Position numbers and translations under genes: made by a program. 64,000 nucleotides of DNA from an uncultured Verrucomicrobiota bacterium (GTDB lineage Bacteria; Auribacterota; JABMQX01): positions 162-64,161 of the forward strand of contig CAZXGF010000010.1 in the NCBI GenBank assembly GCA_964640185.1. Reading direction: 5' to 3'. This document shows positions 14,833-53,985 of this stretch, one piece after another (the stretch's first letter is position 1; every line of letters begins with the position of its first letter). A model generated the notes under the pieces. The model was not told where the DNA came from, did not search any database, and saw only the letters and a program-made list of their open reading frames with translations.

Positions 14833-14952
14833 GTCCCGCAGACTACCTTCTCTCACAGCTTTCTCAGTGATGATCCGCGTTGCGTCCAACTCATTGCCGA
14901 GAGGAAACCAACGCGCTGTCTTGACAATCAAGTTCAAGCCCTGGTTCGGGAG

Positions 14953-16506: not shown

Positions 16507-17067
16507 CTATTCGCTGAGCTTGACGGCCGTCCCGTAAGCTAAAAGTTCAGACGCACTTGCCACAACACTCGTGGTCATATAGCGAACATTGATTATCGCG
16601 TCCGCCCCCATCTTTCCAGCCTGGGCGACCATCCTATTAGTAGCTGCTGCCCGAGCCCTTCGCATCATCTCTGTGTATTCAGTCAATTCGCCGCCGAGGA
16701 TCAACCGGACTATGGCGGATAGGTCTTTGCCAAGCCAGATAGCAAATACCGTCTGGCCCTGGACGAGACCGAGAATCTCCGTGATCTCTCGGCCAGGTAT
16801 TTCTGCCGAATTCATCAGCAAAACCGTGCGGTCGAACTCAGTGGGCAGCGGCCCCTCTCCTGATGCCTTCTTTTTCCTTTGTTCGAGAGCCACTGTCAGC
16901 AGAACCACAAGGATACCCCCCAGAAGGCAGAAAATTGCCGTCCGGAGCCACCAGGGCACAGGCGCCGGATCATCGGCAACGACCACGTGCCACGGTATCC
17001 CAACAAATACTGCCGTGAACAGCCCGACCACGAACGCCAGCGACCCAATCTGTCGAATCGTTTTCAT
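16507..17067 (-). CDS. YbjQ/UPF0145 (DUF74) family protein with N-terminal TM helices
   Basis: ITEILGLVQG...GADAIINVRYMTT...ELLAYGTAVKL core; RBS GGAGGAACT 5 nt before ATG. Confidence 0.7.
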   Translation of the reverse strand: MKTIRQIGSLAFVVGLFTAVFVGIPWHVVVADDPAPVPWWLRTAIFCLLGGILVVLLTVALEQRKKKASGEGPLPTEFDRTVLLMNSAEIPGREITEILGLVQGQTVFAIWLGKDLSAIVRLILGGELTEYTEMMRRARAAATNRMVAQAGKMGADAIINVRYMTTSVVASASELLAYGTAVKLSE

Positions 17068-17114
17068 AGTTCCTCCTTAGACCAGTAGAATCCGAAAAAT
17101 CTCAGCTAACCAGC
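17027..17114 (-). repeat. ybjQ 5' module copy A (RBS + first codons + upstream CAGCTAAC box), part of intact gene
   Basis: ~90% identical over ~80 bp to 18870-18949; diverged homolog at 20129-20290. Confidence 0.8.
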
Positions 17115-17181
17115 GAGCTGACCGCCGCAGCAGAACCTCCCGCGGCTTTTCAACCCCTAGGTTCAAGCCGTTGTTCCAAGT

Positions 17182-18672
17182 CTATCGCCACTTAAGGTTA
17201 CGCAAATCTTTTTCGACTTCACAAAGGAGTTTTGCTTGGACCACTACGAACTTCTCAGGGGCAGGGGTCGACGGAGTCGTCACTCCCGCGTACTTCTTGA
17301 AGCAAGTCGCGATCTTGGCACGCTTGGACTTCACCTTGCTCTTTTTGCCGTGGTCTACGTCGTGCTGCTCGGCAGTTCTCAATATGTTTACATCTGCAAA
17401 GCTTGCGGGCCAATCGCCCTGGAGTCGAGTTCCCACACTCTCCCGAAAAACGAAGTACAGTCCGTCAATCCAGTCTCGGTATCCCGTGTAGTTCTTAATG
17501 CACTGACCAATGTTCGCGAGCGCATTTGCGGTCTTGCTCGTGGCCCTAAACAGGTCTTCGCGCTTTTCTCCTGCGTACTCCTCATTTCGCTGCTCAACAA
17601 GATTACGAATGCGCCTGGCACGTTCAGCGAGGGACTTGTGGATCGCGCTCTCTGCGACGACGCTGACGCCTAGGATGTCAACAAAAGTAGGATCGTAAGC
17701 CAGAAGTTTGCCCAGGAGTATTTCGTTACGGATCTGTGCACCGCGACGGATGTTGGCGTTGACTGTTTTCTGGAAGGCCAGGTATTCAGGATCAGTGGCT
17801 TTCTGCCCCAGGGTAACTTGCCTCGAGAGTTCTTCCATGAAGAACTCAAAAAATTGCCTCAGCCGTTTCGCTGTTCCTTTGTGCTTACCTCTCTGAATGA
17901 CGCGCGACACCAACGTGGCGAATGATTGGACGATCGTGCGTTTTCGGAGTATACGACTCGCCGTTGGAAACACGTCGTCTAAGAAATTGAAGGTGGCGAC
18001 CAGCCTCTTTGCGGCTGTCGACTCCCCACTGAAACTTGCTTGGCTCAAAAATGTCGTGTTTAGGTCCTTGTAGCGAAGACTGGTTTCTATGCCCTCAATC
18101 TCAATCGCCGCAACCTTGGCGACTATATCGAAATGGCCGTACCGCTTATCAGTTGCGGTGACTTTCTCCTCGAAGAACTTGTGCGTTGACAGGTTCTTGC
18201 TGAAGTCTCGCAGCTTGCTTTGGACAGAATTAAGCTTCTCACTGCTTGTCAACGGGAGTCCTCCTTGGAGCCGCTGGAAGAACTCCTTCAACTCCTCTTC
18301 GTCAGCGTCACTGATTTCATCGAACTCGATCTCAAAGTCATCAAATAGGTCGGCCAGATGCTCCGGGAGACCCTTATAGTATTGCGCGCCGAATTCTTCT
18401 GCTGACGACGCGTTCAGCGCGAGTTCATTGTCGAAGAACTCGAACACCGCCACGAGTCGTTGTTGCCCGTCGACGACCTCGTACTCATTGGGCTGTGAAG
18501 AGGTTTTCAGGACATAGAATTTGGGCAACTTCCATCCGCGGAGGATCGAGTCGATAAGCAACTGCTTCTTGCTCTTTGGCCAGACCTTCTGGCGCTGCCA
18601 ATCTGGAATCTCGTACCGGTCCCGACGTTTGTATATTTTGTCCAGTGCCCTCTTTTCCGCTCGCATTTGCAT
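17182..18672 (-). CDS. DUF262 (ParB-like nuclease superfamily, GmrSD N-terminal domain) protein
   Basis: IPDWQRQKVW and VVDGQQRLVAVFEF hallmark motifs; AGGAGGT RBS 7 nt before ATG at 18672; C-terminal half unassigned. Confidence 0.75.
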   Translation of the reverse strand: MQMRAEKRALDKIYKRRDRYEIPDWQRQKVWPKSKKQLLIDSILRGWKLPKFYVLKTSSQPNEYEVVDGQQRLVAVFEFFDNELALNASSAEEFGAQYYKGLPEHLADLFDDFEIEFDEISDADEEELKEFFQRLQGGLPLTSSEKLNSVQSKLRDFSKNLSTHKFFEEKVTATDKRYGHFDIVAKVAAIEIEGIETSLRYKDLNTTFLSQASFSGESTAAKRLVATFNFLDDVFPTASRILRKRTIVQSFATLVSRVIQRGKHKGTAKRLRQFFEFFMEELSRQVTLGQKATDPEYLAFQKTVNANIRRGAQIRNEILLGKLLAYDPTFVDILGVSVVAESAIHKSLAERARRIRNLVEQRNEEYAGEKREDLFRATSKTANALANIGQCIKNYTGYRDWIDGLYFVFRESVGTRLQGDWPASFADVNILRTAEQHDVDHGKKSKVKSKRAKIATCFKKYAGVTTPSTPAPEKFVVVQAKLLCEVEKDLRNLKWR

Positions 18673-18869
18673 GAGATACCTCCTGTTGCGCCTGACGCTC
18701 CCAAAGATTGGCTCAGGGCCGCCTCGCACGCGGCGTGCAAGTGCAGCCGCTGCTTCCGTAGCATTGGCTCTTAGTCACAGGTCCAAGTGTACTCTTATGG
18801 TTTCGTCAAGGGACCCTGCCAGCCATTTCTCCGTCTTGGAAGGTTTCCCTAATAACCCGAGCACGGACC

Positions 18870-18949
18870 CCAGCGAGCCAATCTGTCGAATCGTTTTCAT
18901 AGTTCCTCCTTAGACCAGTAGAATCGGAAAGCCTCAGCTAACGGCGTGC
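18870..18949 (-). repeat. ybjQ 5' module copy B (hairpin, CAGCTAAC box, RBS, first 10 codons MKTIRQIGSL then diverges to a stop)
   Basis: Sequence identity with 17027-17114; upstream imperfect hairpin GAGCGGCGCGG..CCGCGTCCGGCTC at 18929-18966. Confidence 0.75.
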
Positions 18950-19007
18950 CGAGCGGCGCGGCCGTTAGCCCGCGTCCGGCTCCAGCGATGGTTTAGGGAT
19001 TCTACTT

Positions 19008-19640
19008 CTATTCCCCGATGATTCCAATGCTAATGATGGCGAACAGAACCAAGACTAAAGTACTCCAAAGGCCCAGGGGGCCAAGCATCCTTGTAGTCCT
19101 CTTATATGCGTCGTATTGTTCGCGAAATCTCATGCCAATGTCGTATTTCTCCTCAAGGACCGCTTGTACGATGTTGAGGCCCTGGACCAGGGGGAACATC
19201 AGCAGACCATCCAGGTTCCTCGTGATGAGTGGCAACCCCAGCGCGACCCAAACGATGCCCGTATAGATAGGATGCCTGAAATAGCGATAAGTCCCAGTTG
19301 TGAGTAGTCCTGCTTTTACGTCCCGCCCGCCAAGGGCTTTTCTCTTTGCGGCAGTGGTAACCGCCAGGGCGATTCCGGAAATAACTAAAGTAGAACCGAT
19401 CACCGGGAAACCGTAACGGACACTGGTGCTTCGCATAAAGGCGGCTGGAGGGATGCCGTCGCTGGCAGGCGGCAGGACAACTATAAGGTAGCAGAGAAGG
19501 TTATATGTTAGCACAGCCAGCAGATTGGCGATCTTGTTCTCAAGGATTCTCTGATATCTCCTGCGATCCCTGAGGAACCATGCGAAGACCCCGACGAGGG
19601 CTCCAAGCATTGCGAATAGGCTAAATCGAATGATCCACAT
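19008..19640 (-). CDS. isoprenylcysteine carboxyl methyltransferase (ICMT)/PEMT-family membrane methyltransferase
   Basis: Multi-TM; RHPIYTG motif plus downstream EE..L acidic patch typical of the ICMT family. Confidence 0.65.
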   Translation of the reverse strand: MWIIRFSLFAMLGALVGVFAWFLRDRRRYQRILENKIANLLAVLTYNLLCYLIVVLPPASDGIPPAAFMRSTSVRYGFPVIGSTLVISGIALAVTTAAKRKALGGRDVKAGLLTTGTYRYFRHPIYTGIVWVALGLPLITRNLDGLLMFPLVQGLNIVQAVLEEKYDIGMRFREQYDAYKRTTRMLGPLGLWSTLVLVLFAIISIGIIGE

Positions 19641-19680
19641 TGGGCTTTAGTGCATTCCCCCATACCTGCTTTGCCGATGC

Positions 19681-20085
19681 CTAACGCTGCGGCTTCTCCG
19701 CGCCCGCTGGAGCGACTTGCTGGGGTTTGGATTGTCTTTTGCGCTCAATCCATAAACTTGAAACGATTCCTGCCAACGAAAAGACGAAGATCGGAAGGAG
19801 ATCACTTGTAGTACGCTCGACATGATGGGCTGTTCCCAACGTTGTTACCCGAACGTAGAATTTTTCATCTTCAGACTTTTGATAGTCACCACTTTCCCCA
19901 ATCACTTGAGAGGCTGTCGCGACGGGTTCAACCTTTGCGGTGTAATGGGTTGGCTTCAAGACTCGATACTGAGCGTGATAGTGGACAAAACGCGCAAATA
20001 CCCATGTGCTAACAGTCCAAAAACAGATCATCGCAAAAATGACCAGAGGAAGCATGTGATAAAACCTCTCTTGCTGCCTTTTCAT
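19681..20085 (-). CDS. small membrane protein, hypothetical
   Basis: Two predicted TM segments flanking a polar core; no motif recognised. Confidence 0.4.
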   Translation of the reverse strand: MKRQQERFYHMLPLVIFAMICFWTVSTWVFARFVHYHAQYRVLKPTHYTAKVEPVATASQVIGESGDYQKSEDEKFYVRVTTLGTAHHVERTTSDLLPIFVFSLAGIVSSLWIERKRQSKPQQVAPAGAEKPQR

Positions 20086-20128
20086 GCCTGTCTCCTTTCA
20101 TTGCCGAACTATTGATTATCCTGAGCTG

Positions 20129-20242
20129 TCAGGCCACGGCCGGATCATCGGCAACCATCACGTGCCACGGGATCCCGGCAAATACTGCTGTGAAGAGCCC
20201 CAACACGAACGCCACCGAGCCAATTTGTCAAAGTATTTTCAT
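20129..20242 (-). pseudogene. ybjQ-like N-terminal gene fragment (copy C of the 5' module) with in-frame TGA at codon 5
   Basis: Translates MKIL*QIGSVAFVLGLFTAVFAGIPWHVMVADDP, versus MKTIRQIGSLAFVVGLFTAVFVGIPWHVVVADDP in the intact gene at 16507-17067. Confidence 0.7.
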
Positions 20243-20304
20243 AGCGCCTGCTTAGGCAACTAAAATCCAAAATGTCAGCTAACGACATAGCTCAGCGGCG
20301 CGCC

Positions 20305-21702
20305 TTATTGCGCGTCCGGTGGAGCGTTGTGTTGGGTGGAAGAATCGTCTCTTTCCCGAGCCGACAGTACTTTCAGCGCACCCTCGCATGCCTCCAGAAT
20401 CTGTGGGCTCTTGTAGTTGATCGCCTTCCATCGTCGTTGTGTCTCTTCGATTACGCTCCTGGTTCTGGGATCCCCGATACGCAGAAATGCGTAGACAGCC
20501 GCATAAGTCTCGCAGTACGCCCGCATATTGGCCCCGGACTTGTACGCATGCTTGCTCTCCCAATCAGGTTTAGCCATCTGCTGCTTCCAATGCTCGTTGT
20601 GTTTGTTCAACAGATCAATAAGAAAGGGCACAGCGCTCTCGCACCGGATCTCGCCTAAGAGATGTATAACACGCCTCCTGAGGAAGTCGCGCAGACTGAC
20701 TTTGGCTCCTTCGATATGTGAAGCAAGCTCGGCGCTGTCTAAATCGAGCCCTTGGTCTTTCCATTCTCTCTGGAGCTTGCGTTTGGTATTCTCGTACAAC
20801 GCGTTGAGATGAGGGGTGGCGAGTCGTTGCTCTGATCCGGGTCCATCTTTGAGTCCCTTGCGTCTCAGGATGTCCTGGTCAGTTTCCTCAAAAAGTTTGA
20901 TAAGCTCAGGGCATGCAGCATCACCACATGCCACAAGGCCATCTCTGGGTTCGTTTTTCATCCCCCACTGAAAAGATTCTATGAAGTATGGAAGCAATCT
21001 CACAACTCTGGTTTTGGGGTCACGGATCCTGAGCAGGCGTTGGAGTTTTAGATGATCCAGGTACCGCTGGGCACGCTCCTCTATGGCAACGTTCTTTTCC
21101 AGTTGCTGTCTGACAGCCGCTTCCGGATCTTCGGCTAAGTACGCCAAGAAGTAGCTTTTCAGAGACAGCGGTTGGATATCCTGCGGGTCTATGATCCCCA
21201 ACATTTGGGTATTTGAACGCTCGCTTCCCCAACGGTCAGTGCGTTTGCGGAGGAACCAGAGATTGTCTTCCCGTGCGTCCTTCAAAAGAGGCTCACAACT
21301 GAACGAACTGTTACCAGTGTCGAGTATGTAGATTGGGCCTGTCGGGGCGTGTTTCCGGCCCTTCTGCTCTTGAGGTCTGAAACCGTGTCCCCAGTATTTC
21401 CCGCCCACGCGGGGATCGAGGCCATAATGAATAATGATCATGATCTCCTTCTTGTGACATGTTCCCTTTATGACCTCAGTGATGACCAGCCTCGCGTGAT
21501 GTTCCCAGCTTATCCCCTCTTGTCGTTTCCGCTTGTGGGAAACATACTTGATGGAGCGTTCCTTCAAGTGCCCCACAACCATCAGTTCAGCCCGTTCCAC
21601 TACCGTCGCATCCTCGTATCTCGGTCGTAGCTCCGCGTTAGCGGTACTCGAACAGGCAATAAGCATCGGGAGAAACATCGCCAATCTTTTTGCAAGGGTC
21701 AT
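20305..21702 (-). CDS. lipoprotein, hypothetical (lipobox LIAC)
   Basis: GGAGAAAAG RBS; MTLAKRLAMFLPMLIACSS signal/lipobox. Start ATG overlaps the HicB-like stop (ATGA), implying translational coupling. Confidence 0.55.
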   Translation of the reverse strand: MTLAKRLAMFLPMLIACSSTANAELRPRYEDATVVERAELMVVGHLKERSIKYVSHKRKRQEGISWEHHARLVITEVIKGTCHKKEIMIIIHYGLDPRVGGKYWGHGFRPQEQKGRKHAPTGPIYILDTGNSSFSCEPLLKDAREDNLWFLRKRTDRWGSERSNTQMLGIIDPQDIQPLSLKSYFLAYLAEDPEAAVRQQLEKNVAIEERAQRYLDHLKLQRLLRIRDPKTRVVRLLPYFIESFQWGMKNEPRDGLVACGDAACPELIKLFEETDQDILRRKGLKDGPGSEQRLATPHLNALYENTKRKLQREWKDQGLDLDSAELASHIEGAKVSLRDFLRRRVIHLLGEIRCESAVPFLIDLLNKHNEHWKQQMAKPDWESKHAYKSGANMRAYCETYAAVYAFLRIGDPRTRSVIEETQRRWKAINYKSPQILEACEGALKVLSARERDDSSTQHNAPPDAQ

Positions 21703-21974
21703 CGTCTTTTCTCCGCACAACAATGATTATCTTGTTCCGTATAACGTCCCAAGTCGGGACGTTTTGCAGTATAAGACGCCGGCAAATCATGGCAAGAGTC
21801 GCACGCAAGCCGTTGGTTTTCAGTGGCTTGCATCATCGTCTTGCATTCCGCTTTGAGGCTCTCGAGCAGTTCCTCTCGCGTTCTTTCCTGGCAGTTCACA
21901 CCCGGAATCTCCTCTATCCATCCAATCCACCAATCTCCGTCCTTTTGCGTTATGGCTGTGTATGAGTTTGGCAT
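21699..21974 (-). CDS. HicB-family antitoxin-like protein (UPF0150); no recognisable HicA partner
   Basis: YTAITQKDGDWWIGWIEEIPGVNCQERTREELLESLKEA resembles the HicB N-domain. Confidence 0.55.
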   Translation of the reverse strand: MPNSYTAITQKDGDWWIGWIEEIPGVNCQERTREELLESLKAECKTMMQATENQRLACDSCHDLPASYTAKRPDLGRYTEQDNHCCAEKRR

Positions 21975-22262
21975 CTGAACACTCGCTTTCCCTGCACAGA
22001 TCTACAAAGAGTCTATCTGTGTACAAACGCCCCCACGCTTGATTGACTGGATGGGCCCATATTGCTGCACTCTTGACGCCATTACGGCCAACACGTGGCA
22101 TCCCGCCTTTGGCGGGACCCGTGAACCGTCATGAGCAAGATGCCCATGCCACTGAGGGAAAAATGCTATTCCAGCTACTGATGATCATCCTGCCCCTTCT
22201 GAGTCTAAGAACCATGCTCCCACACAGCTCTCCGAGCTGTCAAGCACTGTCTGGCAAATGGG

Positions 22263-29354: not shown

Positions 29355-31988
29355 TTACTCTTGTTTGTCATTCCGACTTTGTGGCCTTTCCGCCATTATG
29401 GATTCGCGGTCGGCGACCTCGCTATGTTGGCTTTGCTTTGCGATAAGCTTCTCGATATTGTTTCGCTCGATTTCCTCCATGCGCTTGCGTTTCTGCGTGA
29501 AGTGGTTGTACTTGCGAACATCGTCGGGCGACCATGCGTTGGCTTCTGTATAGTCGCCGCAATACGGAACTAACAGGTCTATCCAGCAAGCGAGCTTGTC
29601 GAATTCCTCTCGGGTCATTTTTACACCCTCATGCCCTGTTTCGAGCAGTGTGATGAGCAGGCTCCTGGCGGCTCCCGCGTAGTACGGCGGAAGCGCAGGC
29701 GGCGCCGACTGGGCACTGATCCAGTTCACGAGCTCGCTCGACTGGCCTCGCCGCGTCAGCGCCAGATAGGAATCGCTCCACTTTCGCCCTGCTACAGTGT
29801 CCTGCATTTGCTTGCCCAAAAGACTGAAGGAGGTCTCGCTGCCACGGCCCTGTCGCGGGTCTTTGGGAGTGCCGGACTGAGCCCCGCCATTGTGGCAGCG
29901 GATGCAGTGCCGGTCAAGAATCGGCTGGATTTCCCCGATAAAACTAAATCCCCTCGGGGGTCCGTAAAAGGGCTCGAGCTGCCTCGGCCCCGCTGCCATT
30001 GCGAGGGTCGCTTTTGTGACGAGTGGCGTGGAGTTCTTGCTTTCGTGGCAGCCAACGCAGGAGAACACCTCCCCCGGCTGGAGGGTGGACCAGCTCCGCA
30101 TGGTCTGGACAGCGTGCCGCTTTTCATCGAGGGCCTGAAAGTAAACAGGTGTGCGCGCCGGCACGGTGAAGCAGGCTGAGCCGTCCTCGTACACTTGGGC
30201 GTCGCCCAGCACAATCTTAATGTCCCAGCTCCCGTTGCCAATCGCGATGGGGGTGCTAATGAGGGCACTCCCGGCGGGGCCGCGATTTCGGTTTTCCCCA
30301 ATGCCCGCCGCACGGTATTCGAGCGCCACCACGCGAAGTCGCTTGACAGTTCCGCGAGGAACGCCTCGCAGGCTCGGCCCGGCGTAAATGTCCTGGACAT
30401 AGTAGGCGCCTGTCTTCTTGCGGTAATCCACGACGCTCGGACGCACGTGCGGCCTCTTGCGCGGCGAGAGCGGCACGGGCTGGTTGCAGGAGATGCGCGG
30501 GTCAGATACCAAAAGCTCTCGCCGGCCGTCAATGGTCATGAAATAGATGGCGTAGGGCCGCACATACCTTTTGCTCCCGCTGCCGTAAGGGTCGTAGGTC
30601 ACAAGGAAGCACGTCTCACTCAGCGGGTAGGGATATTGAAACTGGTCGCCGTCCTGGCCGTACTGGTCAACGCGAACGGCCCGGGTCTCGCGAACCGGGG
30701 CGACCAACTGCACGCCGGCGGCTTCTTGGCGGCCCCGCCGGATGTCTATGATGGCCAGCTTCCCCCGCTGGTGAGTGTGGTGCCCGGACAAAACCGCGAC
30801 GATCTCACTTGAGGCGGGGATGCCCCTGGCGTGCATGATGGTGGTGGGAAACCAGGAGTTGTTCCCATAACACTCGGTTTGACCCGTTCCGTCGGGGTTC
30901 ATCCGGAACAGGGGTTGGGTGTAGATTTGACCCCGATCGCTGTATTCCCAGCGAGTATAGATGACCTGACCATCATCCCGCACGGACGGATAATTGGTGT
31001 GGACCTGGTCGAAGGTCAACCGGCGGAGATAGCTTCCGTCCTTGTCGCAAGTGTAAAGGTTACTGACCTCGGTCCACCAGCAGTCCACCGTTTGCACACA
31101 GCGGGTTGAGCTAAACACGATGTCGCCATTGGGTAGGTACGCTGGCTCGTAATCTGCGAAGCCCAGGCCGAAGGTGAGCTGGCGGACAGTCCCGCTCGCC
31201 ACGTCCATCTCGTAAAGATGGTAGTCGTCCTTGCGGTCAGATTTCTTCCACGCGAAGAGGATACGTTTGGCATCGTACGAGACAGCGGGGTCGCGGATGA
31301 CGCCATTCGGGTCGTGGATGAGGGTCTGCACATCGCCGTAGTTGCCGTTCATCTTCAGAAGGCAGAGGCTGGCGCCCGGTATGAAATGCCGCTCGCTCTG
31401 GGCGTCAGACTGGCCCTCGGTATAGGCATAATGTGATCCGCCCAGATTGTAATGTTTCGTGAAAACGATCTTCGCGCAGTGCTCGAGCAGAGGTTTGAGG
31501 CGCATCCCTCGCCGTCGTTCGCAGGCTTTCACGTAAAGGTCCAGCCAGCGGTGGTCATCCGGCGCGGACCCGCCGGCGCAAAGCTCCTCGAGTTCCCCCC
31601 GGAAATCCCCGCCGCCCGGGCCAATTTCGTCCAAAACCCGGGCGACCATCTTCTTCTCGAGCTCGGTGTCGCTGGCATTGCCAAACCAGTTGTGGAAGTC
31701 TTTGCCCACGTCCTGAAGTGCCCAGTCACATCGAATTGGAAAATCGGTCTCAACCTGCGACCAAAGCTTCGCTTGCCGCTGGCGTTTGTCCTTCTCTGAA
31801 ACCTCCAGCTTCTCCAACGCTTCGCGTGAGGCAAGCATTGTCTCGCTCCAGGTATCCCGCTTGATATAGCATCGTGGCTTTTCACTCCGTTGCGCCCGCC
31901 CACCTGTAGCGGCGCTCTCGACGCTGAGAAAAGAGCTGAAGAAGAAATAAACCAGTCCAGCCCCACAAGCGGCGATTGTTACTCTCAT
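29355..31988 (-). CDS. TolB/PD40-like beta-propeller protein with CxxCH motifs (repeat-free paralog of 3290-6346)
   Basis: CVGCHES and CIRCHNG; propeller (PNGDIVFSSTRC, DGQVIYTRWEYSD); C-terminal FDKLACWIDLLVPYCGDY block; signal peptide. Confidence 0.75.
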   Translation of the reverse strand: MRVTIAACGAGLVYFFFSSFLSVESAATGGRAQRSEKPRCYIKRDTWSETMLASREALEKLEVSEKDKRQRQAKLWSQVETDFPIRCDWALQDVGKDFHNWFGNASDTELEKKMVARVLDEIGPGGGDFRGELEELCAGGSAPDDHRWLDLYVKACERRRGMRLKPLLEHCAKIVFTKHYNLGGSHYAYTEGQSDAQSERHFIPGASLCLLKMNGNYGDVQTLIHDPNGVIRDPAVSYDAKRILFAWKKSDRKDDYHLYEMDVASGTVRQLTFGLGFADYEPAYLPNGDIVFSSTRCVQTVDCWWTEVSNLYTCDKDGSYLRRLTFDQVHTNYPSVRDDGQVIYTRWEYSDRGQIYTQPLFRMNPDGTGQTECYGNNSWFPTTIMHARGIPASSEIVAVLSGHHTHQRGKLAIIDIRRGRQEAAGVQLVAPVRETRAVRVDQYGQDGDQFQYPYPLSETCFLVTYDPYGSGSKRYVRPYAIYFMTIDGRRELLVSDPRISCNQPVPLSPRKRPHVRPSVVDYRKKTGAYYVQDIYAGPSLRGVPRGTVKRLRVVALEYRAAGIGENRNRGPAGSALISTPIAIGNGSWDIKIVLGDAQVYEDGSACFTVPARTPVYFQALDEKRHAVQTMRSWSTLQPGEVFSCVGCHESKNSTPLVTKATLAMAAGPRQLEPFYGPPRGFSFIGEIQPILDRHCIRCHNGGAQSGTPKDPRQGRGSETSFSLLGKQMQDTVAGRKWSDSYLALTRRGQSSELVNWISAQSAPPALPPYYAGAARSLLITLLETGHEGVKMTREEFDKLACWIDLLVPYCGDYTEANAWSPDDVRKYNHFTQKRKRMEEIERNNIEKLIAKQSQHSEVADRESIMAERPQSRNDKQE

Positions 31989-45733: not shown

Positions 45734-45808
45734 GCGCCTGTAGCTCAGTTAGGATAGAGCACGGGATTCCTAATCCCGGTGTCGGAGGTTCAAATCCTCT
45801 CAGGCGCA
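45734..45808 (+). tRNA. tRNA-Arg (anticodon CCT)
   Basis: Cloverleaf by hand: acceptor GCGCCTG/CAGGCGC, D-arm GCTC..GAGC, anticodon arm CGGGA-TTCCTAA-TCCCG, T-arm GGAGG-TTCAAAT-CCTCT, discriminator A; 75 nt. Confidence 0.85.
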
Positions 45809-45931: not shown

Positions 45932-46761
45932 GTGAGAAGGCGTCCCGATTCCCGCTTTTGGCACTATGATTTCTGGTATCGCGGGTGGCGGTATAAGGGT
46001 TCTACGAAGCAGACCTCCAAGGCCCGCGCGCAAGAATACGAAGCACACCAGCGCGAACTCGTCAGGGGAGGGTGGGAGCCGCATTTCACATCGCCCCACT
46101 TGAAAGACCTGCTCTCGCAATATATGGAGTGGCTTGAGGCGAACAACAAATCACCCGCGCACATAGACAGGGCACGGCGGGGATTGAGGAACGTTCTCAG
46201 TCGGATGAAACGGGTGAGGGTTGCCGAGGACATCAGGCCGAAGGAAATAGACGAGTATAAGAAGCAGCGCTTGGGGGAGTGTTCGCCCTTCACAGTCAAC
46301 ACGGAGCTTCGCTACTTGCGAGCCTTCCTCAAGCGTTGCGTTAAACAGGGCTGGTTACAATCCATGCCAGCGGAGATCGAGCAAGTAAGCACACCCCAGG
46401 TCAGGGGCGGGTCGTTTTCCTATCAGAGAGCGAAATAGGCCCCTTCCTTGCCCAGTTGAAGCCGTGGGCGCGGAGAGCGGCAGGCTTGATATTGCGGACA
46501 GGATTGCGGCTTGGCGAGGCGAGATTCCTTCAGTGGGAGGACGTTGACCTTGAGGCCGGCGAGCTATGGGTTCCCAAGAAGCCGGACTTGGGGTTCGCCC
46601 CTAAGAGCCGGAGGGAAAGGTGCATTGCGCTCCCCCCGAACTTAATAGAAGAACTCGCGGCCCGTAGAAAGCAAAAGGGTTGGGTGCTTCGCGGCCCCAG
46701 AGGTGAACCGGGAAAGGCGAGCCATTGTCAGGCGTGGCGAGTGAGACGGTTGACAGGGTGA
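45932..46761 (+). pseudogene. tyrosine recombinase (phage integrase) remnant: N-terminal SAM-like domain (45932-46438), frameshift, start of catalytic domain (46456-46761), truncated before H-R-Y
   Basis: LILRTGLRLGEARFLQWEDVDLEAGELWV box-I motif; the two ORFs are in different frames; located directly 3' of the tRNA. Confidence 0.7.
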
Positions 46762-48048: not shown

Positions 48049-48451
48049 CGTACTGCCCTCCTCTCTTTAGCTTGAAAGATATTTTTGCCACAGATGAGTT
48101 TACTTTCACAGGATTTTGTTCCCTACGCAAAAGAAAAAGCATTCTCCTATCCAGGGAAGCTGCTTGTGTTCCACAAGGGAAAAAGGAAGATTAAATCTCC
48201 CACTCCTCCGACATTTCACCTTTCTCTCCCTGTCAGACCTTTTCCGTGCCTTTCCGGTCAAGCTGTGTCGCTTGTGGATTGGCGGGGTGATACAAAAATT
48301 TCGGAACGATCAGGAATAAGAAGGTGTTCTAAAAATGCGGGAAAAAAATGGCAAAAAAAGAAAAAAAACTTGACAAAAAGCTGCTGGTATGCGATATGCT
48401 AACATCACATTTCATAAGAAAGAGGCCCCTTGTAAAGGGAGGAAACAGAAG

Positions 48452-48769
48452 GTGGAGCCGCTGGGATTTGTCATCCTTACTATTGAATATCGTCAAGAAC
48501 AAGACCGCGTGCTTGCCAGATGTCGCGAATTGAGCACTTCTACGTTCGGTGATACATTTGAAGAAGCTCAAGAAGCCATTCTTGAGGCCATTGTGCTACA
48601 CGTAAACACTTTGGAAGATGTTGGCGAACGGGAGCGCTTTTTCAAGGAACATAACATTAAGTTTTACCGTACAAGGCCTCGTCGCCACAGTTCAATAAGC
48701 ATCCCACCGGATAAGCATCTCTTCTATCAGCGTGTAATGCAGCCTGTGTTCCAAGCGGCAAGCGCGTAA
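48452..48769 (+). CDS. HicB-family antitoxin-like protein
   Basis: GGGAGGA RBS then GTG 48452; FVILTIEYRQEQDRVLARCRELSTSTFGDTFEEAQEAILEAIVLHVNTLED fits the HicB N-domain. Confidence 0.5.
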   Translation: MEPLGFVILTIEYRQEQDRVLARCRELSTSTFGDTFEEAQEAILEAIVLHVNTLEDVGERERFFKEHNIKFYRTRPRRHSSISIPPDKHLFYQRVMQPVFQAASA

Positions 48770-49026
48770 TGGGGGAATCTCTTCCAGCAATCAGCGGCAA
48801 GCAGTTAATAAAGCTTCTCGTGAAAGACGGCTGGGAAATCAGAAGAAAAGCGAAACATGGGTTTTCGTTGGCAAAATGCCTACCAGCTCGAACGCTCGTT
48901 ACCCTTGTTCCCAATAAATCCAAACCTCTGCCCATAGGCACACTTTCCGACATCTGGGGTGTTGACCAAACTCGTTATGGCAGAAAGGGAATTCAAAAAC
49001 TCATAGAAAAACACGGCCTCAAATGA
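48769..49026 (+). CDS. HicA-family toxin-like protein (YcfA-like)
   Basis: TAATG overlap with upstream gene; GKQLIKLLVKDGWEIRRKAKHGFSLAK...TLVTLVPNK...PIGTLSDI parallels the HicA pattern. Confidence 0.5.
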   Translation: MGESLPAISGKQLIKLLVKDGWEIRRKAKHGFSLAKCLPARTLVTLVPNKSKPLPIGTLSDIWGVDQTRYGRKGIQKLIEKHGLK

Positions 49027-49905: not shown

Positions 49906-50325
49906 ATGAGCGAAGCCAGCGCACGCCAATGCGAAAAGCAAAAAGGCAAAATCCTGGTTGTGGACGACGAGCTGATCGTTTGCAAGAGCTGCGTCAGGGT
50001 GCTTGCCCCGGAAGGATATTCCGTCACGACCACTCAAAGCGGACGTGAGGGAATCGAGAGGGGCGCCTCCGGCGATTTCGATGTAGCAATTGTGGATCTG
50101 AAGATGCCCGACATGGACGGAATGGAGGTTCTTCACGCAATAAAGGAAAAGCAGCCCGAGGTGCAGGTCATTGTGATAACCGGTTATTCGACGGCATCCA
50201 CAGCGGTTGATGTTATCAAGCTCGGGGCTGGTGAGTACCTCCCTAAGCCTTTCACTCCGGATGAGCTTCTCGCTGCAGTCAGCAGGGCTATGAAGAGTAG
50301 AAGAGCGATCGCCGAGAATCGTTAG
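49906..50325 (+). CDS. stand-alone response-regulator receiver domain (CheY-like)
   Basis: ILVVDDE, phospho-acceptor AIVDLKMPDMDG, conserved T/K (VIVITGY...LPKPF). Confidence 0.8.
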   Translation: MSEASARQCEKQKGKILVVDDELIVCKSCVRVLAPEGYSVTTTQSGREGIERGASGDFDVAIVDLKMPDMDGMEVLHAIKEKQPEVQVIVITGYSTASTAVDVIKLGAGEYLPKPFTPDELLAAVSRAMKSRRAIAENR

Positions 50326-50665: not shown

Positions 50666-53600
50666 GTGGAGCAGTTGAAATTCTTCGATGTCGGTCAAGA
50701 AGGAATTGGGGAGGTGCGGGAGGGCCCGCCGTCCTTGCCGAGTTCCCCAGATGAACTCGCCTATTGGTTCTCAGAGGCTGTTAAGGCTGAGATCGAGGAG
50801 TTGTCAAAGAAGGGGGGACAGCAATCTTATGAGCTGCTATCGGGGGAGTTAATCAAGACAATAGGTTCCAGCCAAGGGATTTTTTCATTTATACTCGCTG
50901 ATGGCACAAGGATTCCTGAGGATGCAACCGGGCAACTAAAGACGGAAAGTGCAGAATACACCGCCACTGTAATACGCCAGGAAGTTAACCGTATCCAAAT
51001 CCAGCTCGAAGCGAGTTCCCGACTTCCCGATGCCATTTCCAGGGCGATTCTTTTAATCGACGACACGGCTCTCCTTCGACGACTGGCGGATGTACTTGAC
51101 GCTAAGGCTGAGAACCCAACGGGAGTTCGACCTTTAGCGGTAAAAGTATTCCATCCCGTCCAGGCAGAAATTGGGACTGCACTTTTACCTGACATCCCAG
51201 CGTTGGTTGATAAGAATCCCCGGAACCGCCACGTGTGGGAAAAAGCGTGTGGCTCCTCCGTCACGTATATATGGGGACCGCCGGGTACCGGAAAAACGTT
51301 CTCAATCGCTCATCTTGTGGCCACCCTCATCGCATTGCATGAGAGAGTTCTTGTACTCAGCCATACGAATGCGGCCGTAGATCAGTCCCTATATGAGGCG
51401 GTAAAACGCGCGGGTTCAGAAGAGGAGCAAGATGGACCGCTCGCCGTACATCCCTTCCTTCAGGAGGGCAAGATACTTAGGATCGGGCCAACAACGAATC
51501 AGAAGATTCCCGACCCCGTTCGGTTGGACTGGGTGGTCGGCCAAAAGACCAGCGACATAAGCAAAGAGATCGTAGCTCTGGAGTCAAAAGCGAAACCACT
51601 TAGGGAGCAACTTGAATACGGCAATGCCATAATTGCAGAGTGGGACAAACTTTCGGATCTCGCGAACCGCTACGAATCAGCCGCTGAATCCGAAAGCTCC
51701 TGCAAAGACAAAACGAGAGCCGCCAGAGACCAGTTAAGAAACCACGGGAATATAGTTAGGCAGCGAGGCCTCGAACTTGAAGAGGCCAAAGGCGCCTGGC
51801 TTTTTCGGAAGAGAAAGATACAACGCGCTTCCAACGCCTTGCGTGTAGCGCATGAACTATTCACGCATTCCAAAGAAGCGTTGGAACTCCTTCACGCAAA
51901 GCAGACCGCGGCTCGCGACTTAGCTGTTACGCTTAAGTTAGCACTCGATAGACAACGGAGTGCATGTCAACAGCTGCTGCCCCGGGAAATCCTTGAGAAC
52001 GAGGTGGGAAATATAGCCAAGCGCTTGGAACCGCTGGAGACAAGGATTCAATTGCTCCAACAAGAACTCTCGGAACTTGAGCAGAAGCTGGTTGAAAAAG
52101 CCCGAGCGATTTTCTGCACCCTGACCAAGAACTATACCGACAGAACGTTGGAAGATCAGGCCTTTGACGCGGTAATCGTCGATGAGATTTCCATGGCACT
52201 TCCACCTTTGATTTTCCTGGCTGCGGCTCGGGCAATCAAACGCATTATTTTGGTCGGGGACTTTTGTCAACTTCCTCCAATTGTCCGGAGCGATACGCCT
52301 ATAAGCGATGAGAGACTTGGGACGGATGTCTTTCATCTGGCTGGTGTCGCACACGATTGTAAACCAGCAGAAGGATGCGTTGTTTTGGAAAGGTTGACCG
52401 AGCAGCGAAGAATGCTGCCCGAAATTGCCAACATTGCGCGGCATCTGGTTTACGACCAGACCGGTGTTAGACTCGAAGATCATCAGTCGCTGAAGAAGCG
52501 CCTGAAGCAAATTCACGAACACCCCACGCACGCTTGGCTTAGGTCTCTCCCGGGCAGCACGCTACTCATAGTCGATACTGCGGACTTGCATTGTTGGAGC
52601 GGCAAACAACCTGGTAGCCTCAGCCGTTTTAATTTCTATTCAGCAACAGTCGCTGTAGAGACTGCAGCCCTGGCCGTATCAGATCTCCCAAGGCCCGACC
52701 GTGTTAGTAGCCCCAGACCTATTGGCATCGTCACTCCTTTTGTGGCTCAACGAAGGCTCATTACGAAGATGCTGAGGAACTTAGACCTGGAAGATTGGGT
52801 TCAAGCAGGAACAGTTCATACGTTTCAGGGGGGGCAGGCCGATCTGATCATATTCGATTCCGTTTTGGATGAACCGTATTGGTCCGCCAGGCTCGTCACA
52901 CCTAGGTACCTCAAAGAGGTTAGACGCGAGCTCAACGTTGCAGTGACCCGGGCCAAGAACAAATTCATTCTCATAGGGTCCTCTGAATGGCTCAACGAGC
53001 GCGCCAGGGCAGCCAGTGGTCTTGGCCAACTTTGGATGTATCTCAGAAACCATGCCGATCTCGTGTCAGCCGCGGACTTGCCCATAGAGGATCTTCCGAA
53101 CCGGATATTTGGCTTCTCTGTCGATAGTACGAAGTGGTGCGTCCCAAGACAAAGCCATGGCTTGGCTTGGGAACCCCTTGACGAAAATACCTTTTTCCAT
53201 CGTTTCATAGCCGATATCAATTCAGCTTCTAAGAGCATCCTCGCATTCGCCCCTTATTTCGGCAGCTATCGCTGGCCCAGAGTCCAGCCAGCCTTCTATG
53301 CCGCCCTGAACAAAAAGCCCCGAGTCGAGATCACCATCGTCACTCCGCGGCTTAATGATGTTGACCCGGCAGCAAGAGCCTACACGAAAAAGGCCCTCCT
53401 GAATTTAAAAGAGCAGGGGGCGACCGTAGTTCCCGCAAGTGGTATGCATGGAAAGGACGTAATTATCGATGAGCGGATTCTTTATACCGGCAGCATGAAT
53501 TGGTCCAGCCATCGAGGCAGGCAGGAAACCGCGCATCGGTTCGAGGCGCCCGAATATGTGAAGTGCTACTTGGAATTGCTCCAGGCAAAGCATTTTCGTC

Positions 53601-53920
53601 AGGCAGTAATTCTTGAGGACGGCTCGCCGCGAGTCTGCCCCTTCTGCCACGAGCCCACCTGGGTCGTTAATCAAGGGAGGCAACACGGCGCTTGGGACTT
53701 CCAGGCGGTCAAAGTGGGCTGCAGCAATAAGGATAGGGCCGATTGTCCGGGGTATCTGAGGAATATCGATGAGCGCCCTCCATTTACCGCCATTCCAAGG
53801 TGCGAAATTGACGGTCGCACGAAATACAGGCGTGTACGGAGAGGCAGGGGCGAAAGATGGCAGTGCCCCAAGCACCCGAAACAATGTCCACTCATCAAGG
53901 TTGTCCCGGGAGATCCATGA
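50666..53920 (+). CDS. SF1 Upf1-like (AAA_11/AAA_12, COG1112) helicase fused to C-terminal phospholipase-D (single HKD) nuclease domain and Cys-rich Zn-ribbon tail; type II Mokosh (MkoC)-like defence candidate
   Basis: Walker A WGPPGTGKTF (~aa 204); motif II FDAVIVDEISM; motifs V/VI TVHTFQGGQADLIIFDSV / NVAVTRAKNKFILIG; HKD motif HGKDVIIDERILYTGSMNWS (~aa 927); CPFCH..C..CP cysteines at the C-terminus. GTG start assumed. Confidence 0.8.
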   Translation: MEQLKFFDVGQEGIGEVREGPPSLPSSPDELAYWFSEAVKAEIEELSKKGGQQSYELLSGELIKTIGSSQGIFSFILADGTRIPEDATGQLKTESAEYTATVIRQEVNRIQIQLEASSRLPDAISRAILLIDDTALLRRLADVLDAKAENPTGVRPLAVKVFHPVQAEIGTALLPDIPALVDKNPRNRHVWEKACGSSVTYIWGPPGTGKTFSIAHLVATLIALHERVLVLSHTNAAVDQSLYEAVKRAGSEEEQDGPLAVHPFLQEGKILRIGPTTNQKIPDPVRLDWVVGQKTSDISKEIVALESKAKPLREQLEYGNAIIAEWDKLSDLANRYESAAESESSCKDKTRAARDQLRNHGNIVRQRGLELEEAKGAWLFRKRKIQRASNALRVAHELFTHSKEALELLHAKQTAARDLAVTLKLALDRQRSACQQLLPREILENEVGNIAKRLEPLETRIQLLQQELSELEQKLVEKARAIFCTLTKNYTDRTLEDQAFDAVIVDEISMALPPLIFLAAARAIKRIILVGDFCQLPPIVRSDTPISDERLGTDVFHLAGVAHDCKPAEGCVVLERLTEQRRMLPEIANIARHLVYDQTGVRLEDHQSLKKRLKQIHEHPTHAWLRSLPGSTLLIVDTADLHCWSGKQPGSLSRFNFYSATVAVETAALAVSDLPRPDRVSSPRPIGIVTPFVAQRRLITKMLRNLDLEDWVQAGTVHTFQGGQADLIIFDSVLDEPYWSARLVTPRYLKEVRRELNVAVTRAKNKFILIGSSEWLNERARAASGLGQLWMYLRNHADLVSAADLPIEDLPNRIFGFSVDSTKWCVPRQSHGLAWEPLDENTFFHRFIADINSASKSILAFAPYFGSYRWPRVQPAFYAALNKKPRVEITIVTPRLNDVDPAARAYTKKALLNLKEQGATVVPASGMHGKDVIIDERILYTGSMNWSSHRGRQETAHRFEAPEYVKCYLELLQAKHFRQAVILEDGSPRVCPFCHEPTWVVNQGRQHGAWDFQAVKVGCSNKDRADCPGYLRNIDERPPFTAIPRCEIDGRTKYRRVRRGRGERWQCPKHPKQCPLIKVVPGDP

Positions 53921-53985
53921 CAATAATGCGGGCCACTCACCGCACAACCTCCTGTGGACCAAGGGGTTTCTTGGAGCAGCACCGC

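Follow-up and report, generated by a model that had tools for sequence, protein, structure and literature searches.

The window, the whole stretch of 64,000 nucleotides that was analysed, stems from an uncultured Verrucomicrobiota bacterium and carries a gene that encodes, in one chain and in this order, an Upf1-like SF1B helicase, a PLD nuclease, and two zinc ribbons. The gene and its parts are listed below; conservation counts here and throughout were taken over 121 family sequences.

50666..53920, + strand: helicase–PLD–zinc-ribbon gene; complete ORF, 1084 aa, GTG start, TGA stop
50738..51235, + strand: stalk helix, six-strand beta-barrel (domain 1B), and stalk helix (residues 25-190)
51275..51298, + strand: Walker A motif GPPGTGKT (residues 204-211); K210 conserved in 121/121 family sequences
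51536..52099, + strand: insertion into RecA1 of about 190 aa (residues 291-478), helical and resembling a coiled coil, where Upf1 has its domain 1C
52181..52192, + strand: Walker B/motif II, DEIS (residues 506-509); D506 and E507 conserved in 120/121 family sequences
52346..53065, + strand: RecA2 (residues 561-800), assigned by AAA_12 (576-773) and by PDB sequence matches to Upf1, Dna2, and IGHMBP2
53171..53590, + strand: single-HKD PLD nuclease of the Zucchini/Nuc type (residues 836-975), assigned by PLDc_2 and a fold model
53618..53917, + strand: two tandem zinc ribbons (residues 985-1084), assigned by conserved ligands and a model
53949..53966, + strand: terminator-like hairpin, 29 nt past the stop codon

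The ORF described in the original prediction and all of the motifs quoted for it are present. The start codon is uncertain by about three codons: public gene calls for this ORF give 1084 or 1081 aa, and homology within the family starts near residue 25. A promoter scan upstream of the gene found none, and the terminator-like hairpin is weak evidence because such sites are no more frequent in this region than expected by chance. The Pfam searches that had been suggested as a check recovered all three expected domains above their gathering cut-offs, namely AAA_11 at residues 186-542 (6e-31), AAA_12 at 576-773 (4e-23), and PLDc_2 at 848-966 (6e-12). Decayed or fragmentary copies do occur in the family; however, with an uninterrupted frame of 1084 codons and all catalytic and zinc-ligand residues intact, there is next to no probability that the gene is an inactive relic. 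Moreover, an identical protein was recovered in two independent Logan assemblies, and JGI contigs of the same species, obtained from six further samples, have the same gene beside the 10-gene hydrogenase/Hdr-like operon that adjoins it in the window.

The N-terminal 190 residues or so, for which the original prediction could name no counterpart, are not an extra domain. They form the stalk and 1B barrel that Upf1-like helicases have in common and resemble those of Upf1, Sen1, IGHMBP2, and Dna2. The protein thus combines the features that define an Upf1-like SF1B helicase: two RecA domains with SF1 motifs (in RecA2, TVHTFQG at 716-722 and NVAVTRAK at 757-764) together with the stalk and 1B barrel. 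From this family membership, the helicase is predicted to translocate 5'->3' on single-stranded RNA or DNA. The insertion at residues 291-478 splits the Pfam AAA_11 match; weak matches to the coiled coils of SMC, JetC, and LmuB were obtained across residues 293-507 by profile search, and the insertion is the least conserved region of the protein (mean column conservation of 0.45 over the 121 sequences). The helicase core, including the stalk and 1B barrel, is shared with eukaryotic Upf1, IGHMBP2, Sen1/SETX, Dna2, and MOV10L1. However, identity to eukaryotic Upf1-like helicases and to Zucchini/PLD6 is only 11-24%, the CH domain and the membrane anchor of the eukaryotic counterparts are missing, and helicase and PLD domain reside in one chain, unlike in these proteins.

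Since the top PDB sequence matches of the 1084-aa protein, and thus the closest solved sequences, were Upf1, Dna2, and IGHMBP2, and the best NCBIfam match was the IGHMBP2-family model, we considered a housekeeping helicase-nuclease acting in DNA repair or replication (Dna2/RecD-like) or in RNA quality control (Upf1/IGHMBP2-like). All such models scored far under their cut-offs: 139.8 versus 348.9 for IGHMBP2 (TIGR00376), 41.8 versus 310 for RecD (TIGR01447), and 41.5 versus 500 for RecD2 (TIGR01448). Profile searches therefore did not place the ATPase in a housekeeping helicase family, an outcome that had been named beforehand as one that would speak against a defence role. Membership of PLuB was likewise rejected (NCBIfam NF040671, 101 bits versus a cut-off of 999), and no literature on PLuB was found.

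The nuclease domain contains one HKD motif, H928-G-K930-x4-D935-x6-G942-S-x-N945 (nt 53447-53500), in which H928, K930, D935, and N945 are conserved in 121/121 family sequences. Foldseek searches with the model of the domain (pLDDT 85) matched mouse Zucchini best (4ggj, E 8e-7), besides Nuc (1byr) and NucT (6ehi). Hence, the HKD region matches both PLD profiles and the PLD-nuclease fold, as the proposed assignment required. In Nuc and Zucchini, two HKD copies pair in a homodimer to form the active site. As one HKD amounts to half a PLD active site, cleavage by the present protein should need two PLD domains; given this pairing requirement, the nuclease would stay off in the free monomer.

Zucchini carries an internal zinc finger, whereas the zinc ribbons of the 1084-aa protein form a C-terminal tail. 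This Cys-rich tail was found at residues 985-1084, where it had been noted before. Likely ligands are C991, C994, C1019, and C1027 in the first ribbon and C1046, (D1049), C1067, H1070, and C1074 in the second. The Cys/His ligands are conserved in 115-120 of the 121 family sequences, conservation of the tail region is 0.74, and the tail model has a pLDDT of >90 over most of its length. The zinc-ribbon tail for which the original prediction could name no counterpart is thus a module of two ribbons in tandem. Five relatives of about 26% identity carry Zn_ribbon_Top1 (PF01396) at the same position (53-69 bits, E 7e-19 to 2e-14). In contrast to these clear matches, the tails of the window gene's own family stayed below threshold (12-17 bits versus a cut-off of 32, in three of ten sequences). 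A second sub-threshold Pfam match of the tail was Zn_ribbon_recom, and alignment of the family tail with the Top1-type tails of the relatives by hhalign was weak (probability 32%). A profile of the tail gave no meaningful match among PDB sequences. Its only matches in a set of 5.8 billion proteins were decayed members of the window gene's own family or fragments from their C-terminus, and no different architecture was among them. Judged from these sequence comparisons, the tail probably consists of diverged ribbons of the topoisomerase I type.

Full-length homologues, at least 120 in number and 45-57% identical, are spread across distant phyla. Seven homologue loci were examined, and these had no neighbour in common. 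Four of the seven are clear defence islands with Gabija-like OLD/UvrD genes, STAND NTPases, SIR2, GmrSD, a restriction-modification methylase with ResIII, MNT/HepT, and integrases; the remaining three showed no recognisable defence neighbours. Within the species, all contigs that extend past the neighbouring gene carry the helicase–PLD gene. In contrast, three relatives retain the 10-gene operon and lack the gene, the neighbouring protein being 89%, 82%, and 82% identical. Synteny in these relatives breaks where the operon ends; the operon-adjacent slot is occupied by a GajA/AriA/NsnB-like ATPase in one of them and by toxin-type or toxin-antitoxin-like genes and unknowns in the other two. Conservation in a syntenic core-genome context, which would have spoken against a defence role, was thus not observed: the gene is missing from relatives that keep the operon, and its homologues lie in unrelated contexts. 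Some homologues are found among rho, dtd, dxs, and xseAB, as might be expected of a housekeeping gene. Nevertheless, the scatter over unrelated phyla with no conserved partner, the absence from the three close relatives, the model scores given above, and a GC3 value atypical for the source genome make a housekeeping role very unlikely.

The region upstream of the helicase–PLD gene contains the following features:

45734..45808, + strand: tRNA-Arg(CCT), at the left edge of a low-GC islet
45932..46761, + strand: degraded tyrosine integrase, split into two ORFs (Int_N 5e-6; partial Phage_integrase 6e-7)
48769..49026, + strand: HicA-type toxin gene (Pfam HicA_toxin, 28.2 bits versus a cut-off of 27)
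49906..50325, + strand: stand-alone response-regulator receiver gene (Response_reg 2e-30), 340 nt upstream of the helicase–PLD gene

The islet had been described as tRNA-linked, AT-richer, and bearing an integrase remnant and HicAB. The tRNA-Arg gene was confirmed at its left edge, as were the integrase remnant, with Int_N in ORF 45932-46438 and the partial Phage_integrase in ORF 46456-46761, and the low GC content (0.45-0.50 at 47-50 kb versus 0.57 for the window). The HicA gene is HicA-like also by PADLOC (1.6e-4); HicB was not recovered, as the adjacent ORF matches no profile. PADLOC recognised no system in the islet besides this weak HicA match. The 3' end of the tRNA-Arg gene is not repeated anywhere else in the window, and the island therefore cannot be delimited as a clean insertion. 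The helicase–PLD gene itself has a GC3 of 0.555 versus 0.67-0.74 in the flanking genes. Its scanned neighbouring ORFs comprise the response regulator and redox genes. A functional tie to the response regulator was rejected because that gene is missing beside the other family members, at all seven homologue loci.

The presence of a tRNA gene, a decayed integrase, and the HicA toxin in a stretch of low GC content would also fit cargo that serves a mobile element, in competition between elements, plasmid exclusion, or addiction, and does not protect the host from phages. One homologue adjoins four integrase genes, and the toxin-antitoxin-like genes in the same slot of relatives point in this direction as well. 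However, the integrase is broken, neither an att repeat nor further functions of an element were found, and searches of PLSDB plasmids and IMG/VR viral contigs returned no full-length family member. Mobility of the gene is for this reason deduced solely from patchy distribution and base composition. Such cargo, which we regard as unlikely, would overlap in mechanism with a host defence protein and differ only in beneficiary and target.

Mokosh has been defined by Millman et al. as the combination of a COG1112/Upf1-like helicase with a PLD nuclease, in type II within a single gene, and mutations in the ATPase or the PLD domain abolished defence (Millman et al.). The original prediction of a type II Mokosh-like protein is supported by this definition, as the present gene shares the architecture: one stand-alone gene with an Upf1-like/COG1112 helicase followed by a PLD nuclease with one HKD motif. 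The ATP-binding and PLD active-site residues, both needed in the Mokosh systems tested, are intact and conserved in 120-121 of the 121 family sequences. At the sequence level, the resemblance is partial. The PADLOC MkoC model PDLC03924 matched the 1084-aa protein with 129.4 bits (3.3e-38), the best stretch pairing residues 681-956, from RecA2 into the PLD domain, with model positions 855-1108 of 1136. As a comparator we used the full-length MkoC encoded on the Vibrio coralliilyticus plasmid p337 (WP_064487259.1), which scored 1413.7 bits over positions 5-1135; for E. coli yjhR/MkoC, a search for an intact copy yielded only truncated or IS-disrupted remnants. Alignment with the genuine MkoC by hhalign (probability 99.2%, 27% identity) spanned only residues 490-928 versus 690-1129 and ran collinearly between helicase motif II and the HKD motif, both included, and BLASTP gave 24-29% identity over RecA2 and the PLD domain. 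The N-terminal half of MkoC, with about 290 aa ahead of Walker A compared to about 200 in the 1084-aa protein, could not be aligned. MkoC also stops about 35-45 aa past the HKD motif without a zinc-ribbon tail, and the coiled-coil insertion of about 190 aa is a further difference between the family and MkoC. The protein therefore lies outside the canonical MkoC sequence family, and the earlier suspicion of a variant is borne out by the profile scores (129 versus 1414 bits).

The best PADLOC match was not MkoC but MkoA (PDLC03920, 204 bits, 1.1e-60), in which residues 87-796 aligned with positions 519-1101 of 1112. MkoA and MkoC were thus the top matches in the PADLOC check that had been proposed, and a full-length MkoC match was not obtained. 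MkoA has also been described as Upf1-like, and judged by its match, the helicase module together with part of the 1B/stalk region resembles MkoA more than MkoC. However, Pfam detected no kinase in the 1084-aa protein that would correspond to the Ser/Thr-kinase region of type I MkoA, the first 520 or so MkoA positions remained unmatched, and the PLD domain is fused within one ORF, whereas type I Mokosh has a separate mkoB PLD gene. A further likeness, drawn by description, is to CnuH of type II/III CoCoNuT, an Upf1-like helicase that contains an OB/stalk module and, downstream of Walker A, a coiled-coil insertion; the 1084-aa protein has a corresponding helicase, OB/stalk, and large helical insertion. 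Some CnuH proteins are fused to or paired with PLD or Vsr nucleases, and genes for CnuB/McrB and CnuC/McrC accompany that of CnuH in nearly all cases. Although these likenesses, together with the score on the MkoA model, could indicate a helicase-effector of a multi-gene system, either McrBC of the CoCoNuT type or type I Mokosh with a distant partner, neither CnuB/McrB nor CnuC/McrC was found in the scanned ORFs of the window or at the seven homologue loci, and the scanned flanking ORFs and these loci contain no kinase or separate PLD gene either. Moreover, the nuclease is already part of the same chain and there is no conserved neighbour, which renders such a system extremely unlikely.

Taken together, the helicase–PLD gene stands alone, its loci vary and are often rich in defence genes, and close relatives lack it. 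Most likely, it is a distant cousin of type II Mokosh that acts by itself in defence against phages or other mobile DNA, and its product is probably a Mokosh type II-like immunity protein that is self-contained, horizontally acquired, and directed against nucleic acids. The transfer of function draws on architecture and distant homology, as the MkoC profile match is partial and weak; a literature search for phage-protection experiments on family members found none. According to the mechanism that we propose for this immunity protein, the helicase would load on a single-stranded part of the invader's nucleic acid (transcripts of a phage, or ssDNA intermediates that arise in replication or entry) and move 5'->3' using ATP, while the zinc ribbons may contribute extra single-strand binding. 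For cleavage, two PLD domains would then have to meet, probably through convergence of two molecules on the substrate or through their dimerisation there. As candidate functions, the variable coiled-coil insertion may mediate dimerisation or sense the trigger. Dimer gating, the function of this insertion, and the target type are all inferred. A preprint described the E. coli type II Mokosh protein as a monomer in solution that, in one panel, protected against one ssDNA phage only. It has also been proposed in a preprint, for Mokosh in general, that the helicase-nuclease pairing mirrors that of MOV10L1 and PLD6 in piRNA biogenesis. Based on this restriction to an ssDNA phage and on the topoisomerase-type ribbon tails of the relatives, we lean slightly towards ssDNA or DNA-RNA intermediates over RNA as the target.

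Mokosh is common and has been put forward as the bacterial equivalent of the MOV10L1-Zucchini step in the biogenesis of piRNAs. The family represents a compact, strongly conserved one-protein version with a clean domain layout, and this layout, a PLD domain whose closest solved structure is Zucchini, and the extra tail, predicted to bind nucleic acids, make it a tractable subject of study. It could inform on recognition of RNA versus ssDNA, on silencing through half active sites, and on how often helicase-PLD fusions have originated. Beyond the family, profile searches revealed a wider unnamed helicase-PLD clade with topoisomerase-type zinc ribbons, which includes the five relatives with Zn_ribbon_Top1 tails and, among the matches listed, occurs in Bacillota, Clostridia, Planctomycetaceae, Hydrogenedentota, Nanopelagicales, and Streptomyces. 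In an exhaustive profile search, the best 150 clusters (50% identity) all scored at least 430 bits; with the core family and its fragments set aside, most of the clusters that rank lower cover the helicase and continue through the PLD domain. Among the matches listed, members of the clade share the domain order 1B/stalk–helicase–PLD, with about 26% identity along almost the entire protein. Most have a C-terminal Cys-rich tail, those of Nanopelagicales and Streptomyces with one ribbon, and the PADLOC pattern is partial in the same way as in the family. Possibly, though on balance doubtfully, the family and this larger sister clade form a separate, unannotated Mokosh-like branch, composed of an MkoA-type helicase, a PLD domain, and ssDNA-binding ribbons, that would recognise ssDNA or replication intermediates, not RNA, and be activated by substrate-driven pairing of half sites. 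If so, current HMM-based tools would give too low a count for defence of the Mokosh type, and the view of Mokosh as RNA surveillance would fail for that branch. For both the family and the large sister clade, the PADLOC MkoC profile gives no more than partial coverage, which constitutes an annotation gap in that model.

The uninterrupted ORF and all motifs quoted in the original prediction were confirmed in the sequence, and Pfam assigned AAA_11, AAA_12 and PLDc_2, each above its gathering score. The features of the gene and its product are:

50666–53920, + strand: uninterrupted ORF of 1084 codons with a GTG start
residues 186–542: AAA_11 (Pfam, 6e-31)
residues 204–211: helicase motif GPPGTGKT
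residues 291–478: insertion of ~190 aa between motif Ia and motif II, interrupting the AAA_11 match
residues 506–509: helicase motif DEIS
residues 576–773: AAA_12 (Pfam, 4e-23)
residues 716–722: helicase motif TVHTFQG
residues 757–764: helicase motif NVAVTRAK
residues 848–966: PLDc_2 (Pfam, 6e-12)
residues 928–945: single HKD motif, HGKDVIIDERILYTGSMN
C991/C994/C1019/C1027: putative ligands of zinc-ribbon unit 1
C1046/(D1049)/C1067/H1070/C1074: putative ligands of zinc-ribbon unit 2

Downstream of the HKD motif the C-terminus is rich in cysteine. The start codon is uncertain by about three codons, with public gene calls of 1081 or 1084 aa, and residues 1–24 are not conserved and were modelled with low confidence. 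Two independent public assemblies contain an identical protein.

At least 120 homologues were obtained from 5.8 billion proteins by a word-indexed search. Almost all are full-length (median 1053 aa), and they are 45–57% identical except for one 93% neighbour. All of those listed are unnamed or annotated as 'AAA domain-containing protein', and the sources named for them include Chlamydiota, Gamma- and Deltaproteobacteria, Thermodesulfobacteriota, Planctomycetes and Peptococcaceae. In all 121 family sequences Walker A K210 is invariant, as are the four residues checked in the HKD motif; Walker B D506/E507 are kept in 120. When 1.84 billion representatives were searched exhaustively by HMM, 2442 proteins reached E ≤ 1e-30, and clustering at 50% identity reduced the core family among them to a handful of clusters. 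Each of the top 150 clusters scored at least 430 bits; most of those below the core family are ~1000–1450 aa long, with a match that extends from the 1B/stalk, or else from the RecA1 insertion, across the PLD domain. According to domain HMMs built here, second-tier relatives carry the helicase and PLD modules, several of them also the N-terminal module, and the same HMMs did not detect the core-family tail in them. A profile search with the tail found nothing beyond fragments or decayed copies of the core family. Several short database proteins (P0241–P0265) are such C-terminal fragments or decayed copies, P0252 lacking some zinc ligands, and a frameshift or assembly error divides the copy in a Sedimentisphaerales MAG (L016, 9932–13125) into two overlapping ORFs. 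Bacillus-group genomes and a plasmid of Aulosira contain helicase-only relatives sharing the N-terminal module. Helicases without a PLD domain were seen on Aulosira laxa plasmid1 (L006, 6004–8634) and at loci L022–L027 (Bacillus-group genomes and a Cellulosilyticum MAG), most with 1B/stalk; at the end of the Aulosira protein are two CxxC...C ribbons, of which one is a weak match to Zn_ribbon_Top1.

The N-terminal ~190 aa had been described as having no nameable counterpart. In a model built on a 46-sequence alignment (mean pLDDT 87), this region is predicted to fold as a helix, a six-strand beta-barrel and a further helix, and its top Foldseek matches in the PDB were the Upf1 helicase core (2xzo_A, E 1.4e-4), yeast Upf1, human Upf1 and IGHMBP2. 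The modelled fold and these matches indicate that the region is ordinary Upf1-core anatomy, the stalk and 1B barrel common to every Upf1-like core, with no added domain. The insertion at residues 291–478 appears to occupy the position of Upf1 domain 1C. It gave only weak coiled-coil matches, to SMC, JetC and LmuB, and is the least conserved part of the family (mean column conservation 0.45). A C-terminal model (residues 800–1084, pLDDT 85) was closest to mouse Zucchini/PLD6 (4ggj, E 8e-7), Salmonella Nuc (1byr) and Helicobacter NucT.

The final 100 residues were modelled as two zinc ribbons, with pLDDT >90 over most of their length. The putative ligands of both units are kept in 115–120 of the 121 family sequences, and conservation of the tail (0.74) is at the level of the catalytic domains. 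No match to PDB sequences was obtained with the tail; Pfam gave sub-threshold matches to Zn_ribbon_Top1 for unit 1 and to Zn_ribbon_recom for unit 2. The ~26%-identity relatives carry a tail at the equivalent position that matches Zn_ribbon_Top1 with 53–69 bits in five sequences, four of which have two tandem stretches. The spacing of unit 2 (RRGRGExWQCPKHPKEC) resembles that of the relatives (RxGRxGxFLGCSRYPxC), and profile-profile comparison of the two sets of tails gave a weak match (probability 32%). Judged from sequence, the core-family tail probably consists of diverged topoisomerase-I-type zinc ribbons. The predicted Cys-rich tail is corrected to a tandem zinc-ribbon module.

Mokosh systems combine a COG1112/Upf1-like RNA-helicase domain with a PLD nuclease (Millman et al.). 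In type I these are encoded by separate genes, the helicase gene also carrying a Ser/Thr-kinase domain, while type II is a single gene encoding an N-terminal helicase and a C-terminal PLD domain; defence was lost when either the ATP-binding site or the PLD site was mutated (Millman et al.). By its predicted domains, the protein qualifies architecturally as type II Mokosh, as had been proposed. However, by sequence profile it lies outside the canonical MkoC family: the PADLOC MkoC profile gave 129 bits (best stretch 681–956 against 855–1108 of 1136), compared to 1414 bits over positions 5–1135 for a full-length MkoC from a Vibrio coralliilyticus plasmid. BLASTP identity was 24% to the V. coralliilyticus MkoC (over 491–953) and 29% to the E. 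coli K-12 yjhR remnant (over 646–962). An hhalign alignment to MkoC was collinear (probability 99.2%) and limited to the section from motif II through the HKD motif, and the helicase module scored higher on the MkoA than on the MkoC model (204 bits, residues 87–796). Canonical MkoC also has a different and longer N-terminus and lacks the zinc-ribbon tail. Sister-clade fusions displayed the same partial PADLOC match pattern. The fusion may be shared with MkoC by descent or may have an independent origin. CnuH of CoCoNuT systems resembles the family in its OB/stalk module and coiled-coil insertion but is encoded with McrB and McrC, neither of which was found among the window ORFs scanned or at the seven homologue loci. 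The protein is best regarded as representing a so far uncharacterised, Mokosh-like lineage of helicase-PLD fusions. The architecture will not surprise a specialist; the family reveals an annotation gap and is a good compact model for the Mokosh-type mechanism. Separately, E. coli yjhR (L003, 10016–11032; L004; L005) is a truncated or IS-interrupted type II Mokosh remnant in the three genomes inspected of 1730 matching, and in these it adjoins remnants of a phosphorothioate-dependent restriction gene.

The gene is autonomous and turns over horizontally, and it encodes a domain set whose catalytic and zinc sites are intact and conserved. Upf1-like SF1B enzymes travel 5'→3' along single strands, and in PLD nucleases of the Nuc/Zucchini type two subunits, each with an HKD motif, together build a single active site. 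In a possible mechanism, the helicase would engage single-stranded nucleic acid of the invader, with the zinc ribbons contributing extra grip on the single strand. Cleavage would require pairing of two PLD domains on the substrate, which would leave the free monomer harmless, and the variable coiled coil may serve pairing or sensing. [quoted passage not shown] The ssDNA-phage result and the topoisomerase-type ribbons of the relatives tilt us slightly towards ssDNA or replication intermediates as the target.

Within the same species, the gene is present on every contig reaching beyond the neighbouring 283-aa gene. Three relatives, in which the neighbouring protein is 89%, 82% and 82% identical, keep the whole 10-gene hydrogenase/Hdr-like operon, and purpose-built HMMs detected no helicase-PLD gene in any of them. 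Past the operon, these relatives carry:

L118, 10877–12649: AAA_15 ATPase, NsnB/AriA/GajA-like
L119, 10852–15196: four-gene operon of unknowns (461, 138, 205 and 200 aa) and a PIN_3 protein
L121, 10968–12993: PDDEXK_3 protein and HicA

The position past the operon thus looks like a variable hotspot. The 200-aa protein of L119 matches PDC-M19A (2e-14), and the four-gene operon could be an undescribed system. We also compared the surroundings of seven homologues, taking at most 10 kb on either side. No neighbour is common to all seven. Four lie in obvious defence islands, and no recognisable defence neighbours were seen at the other three. The islands contain:

island 1: NB-ARC/TPR STAND proteins, SIR2_2, AAA_15 ATPase and IS elements
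island 2: GmrSD_N with MNT/HepT
island 3: Gabija-like OLD-TOPRIM and UvrD pair, nSTAND NTPase and four integrases
island 4: SNF2, GmrSD_N, N6_N4 methylase and ResIII

Housekeeping helicase models scored far under their cut-offs on the protein, and neither PLSDB plasmids nor IMG/VR yielded a full-length copy. Context and presence/absence support the reading as a defence gene. The prediction of a type II Mokosh-like candidate, possibly a variant, is supported with the corrections described here. At one homologue locus (L009), a 646-aa SIR2_2 gene (13170–15110) begins 4 bp past the stop of the family member, within a STAND/AAA_15/IS-rich island; in that genome alone, the two may share an operon.

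Several profile-less ORFs lie upstream of the gene in the window, together with:

45734–45808: tRNA-Arg(CCT)
45932–46761: tyrosine integrase, broken into two ORFs
48769–49026: HicA
49906–50325: stand-alone receiver-domain gene

Downstream and convergent is a redox operon encoding HdrA-like, FlpD, ferredoxin-like and FAD/NAD-binding proteins, which extends into NiFe-hydrogenase genes according to gene calls on same-species contigs. GC content is 0.45–0.50 at 47–50 kb, compared to 0.57 overall; that of the gene is 0.527, with a GC3 of 0.555 compared to 0.67–0.74 in flanking core genes. A search for a repeat of the tRNA-Arg 3' end found none and hence no recognisable att site, which does not bear out a clean tRNA-bounded island. 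PADLOC recognised no other system within the islet. Nor was the expected HicB identified: the putative partner of HicA, an ORF of 105–126 aa, has no HicB profile match. It precedes HicA and overlaps its start, an unusual hicAB order (48389–49026).

A second lower-GC stretch (0.51–0.54) at ~17000–22000 may be a second defence islet of the window. It encodes a 515-aa GmrSD_N/DUF262 protein (17185–18729, − strand; Pfam 4.8e-20; PADLOC NsnA 1.1e-28) along with profile-less ORFs at 19008–19640 and 20305–21723. Elsewhere in the window, two large proteins (3290–6346, + strand; 29355–31988, − strand) match HZS_alpha, the hydrazine-synthase-alpha middle domain, at 1e-22 and 3e-32, and a third (8080–10968, + strand) combines cytochrome c554 with a beta-propeller, a repertoire of redox genes that is unusual for the host.
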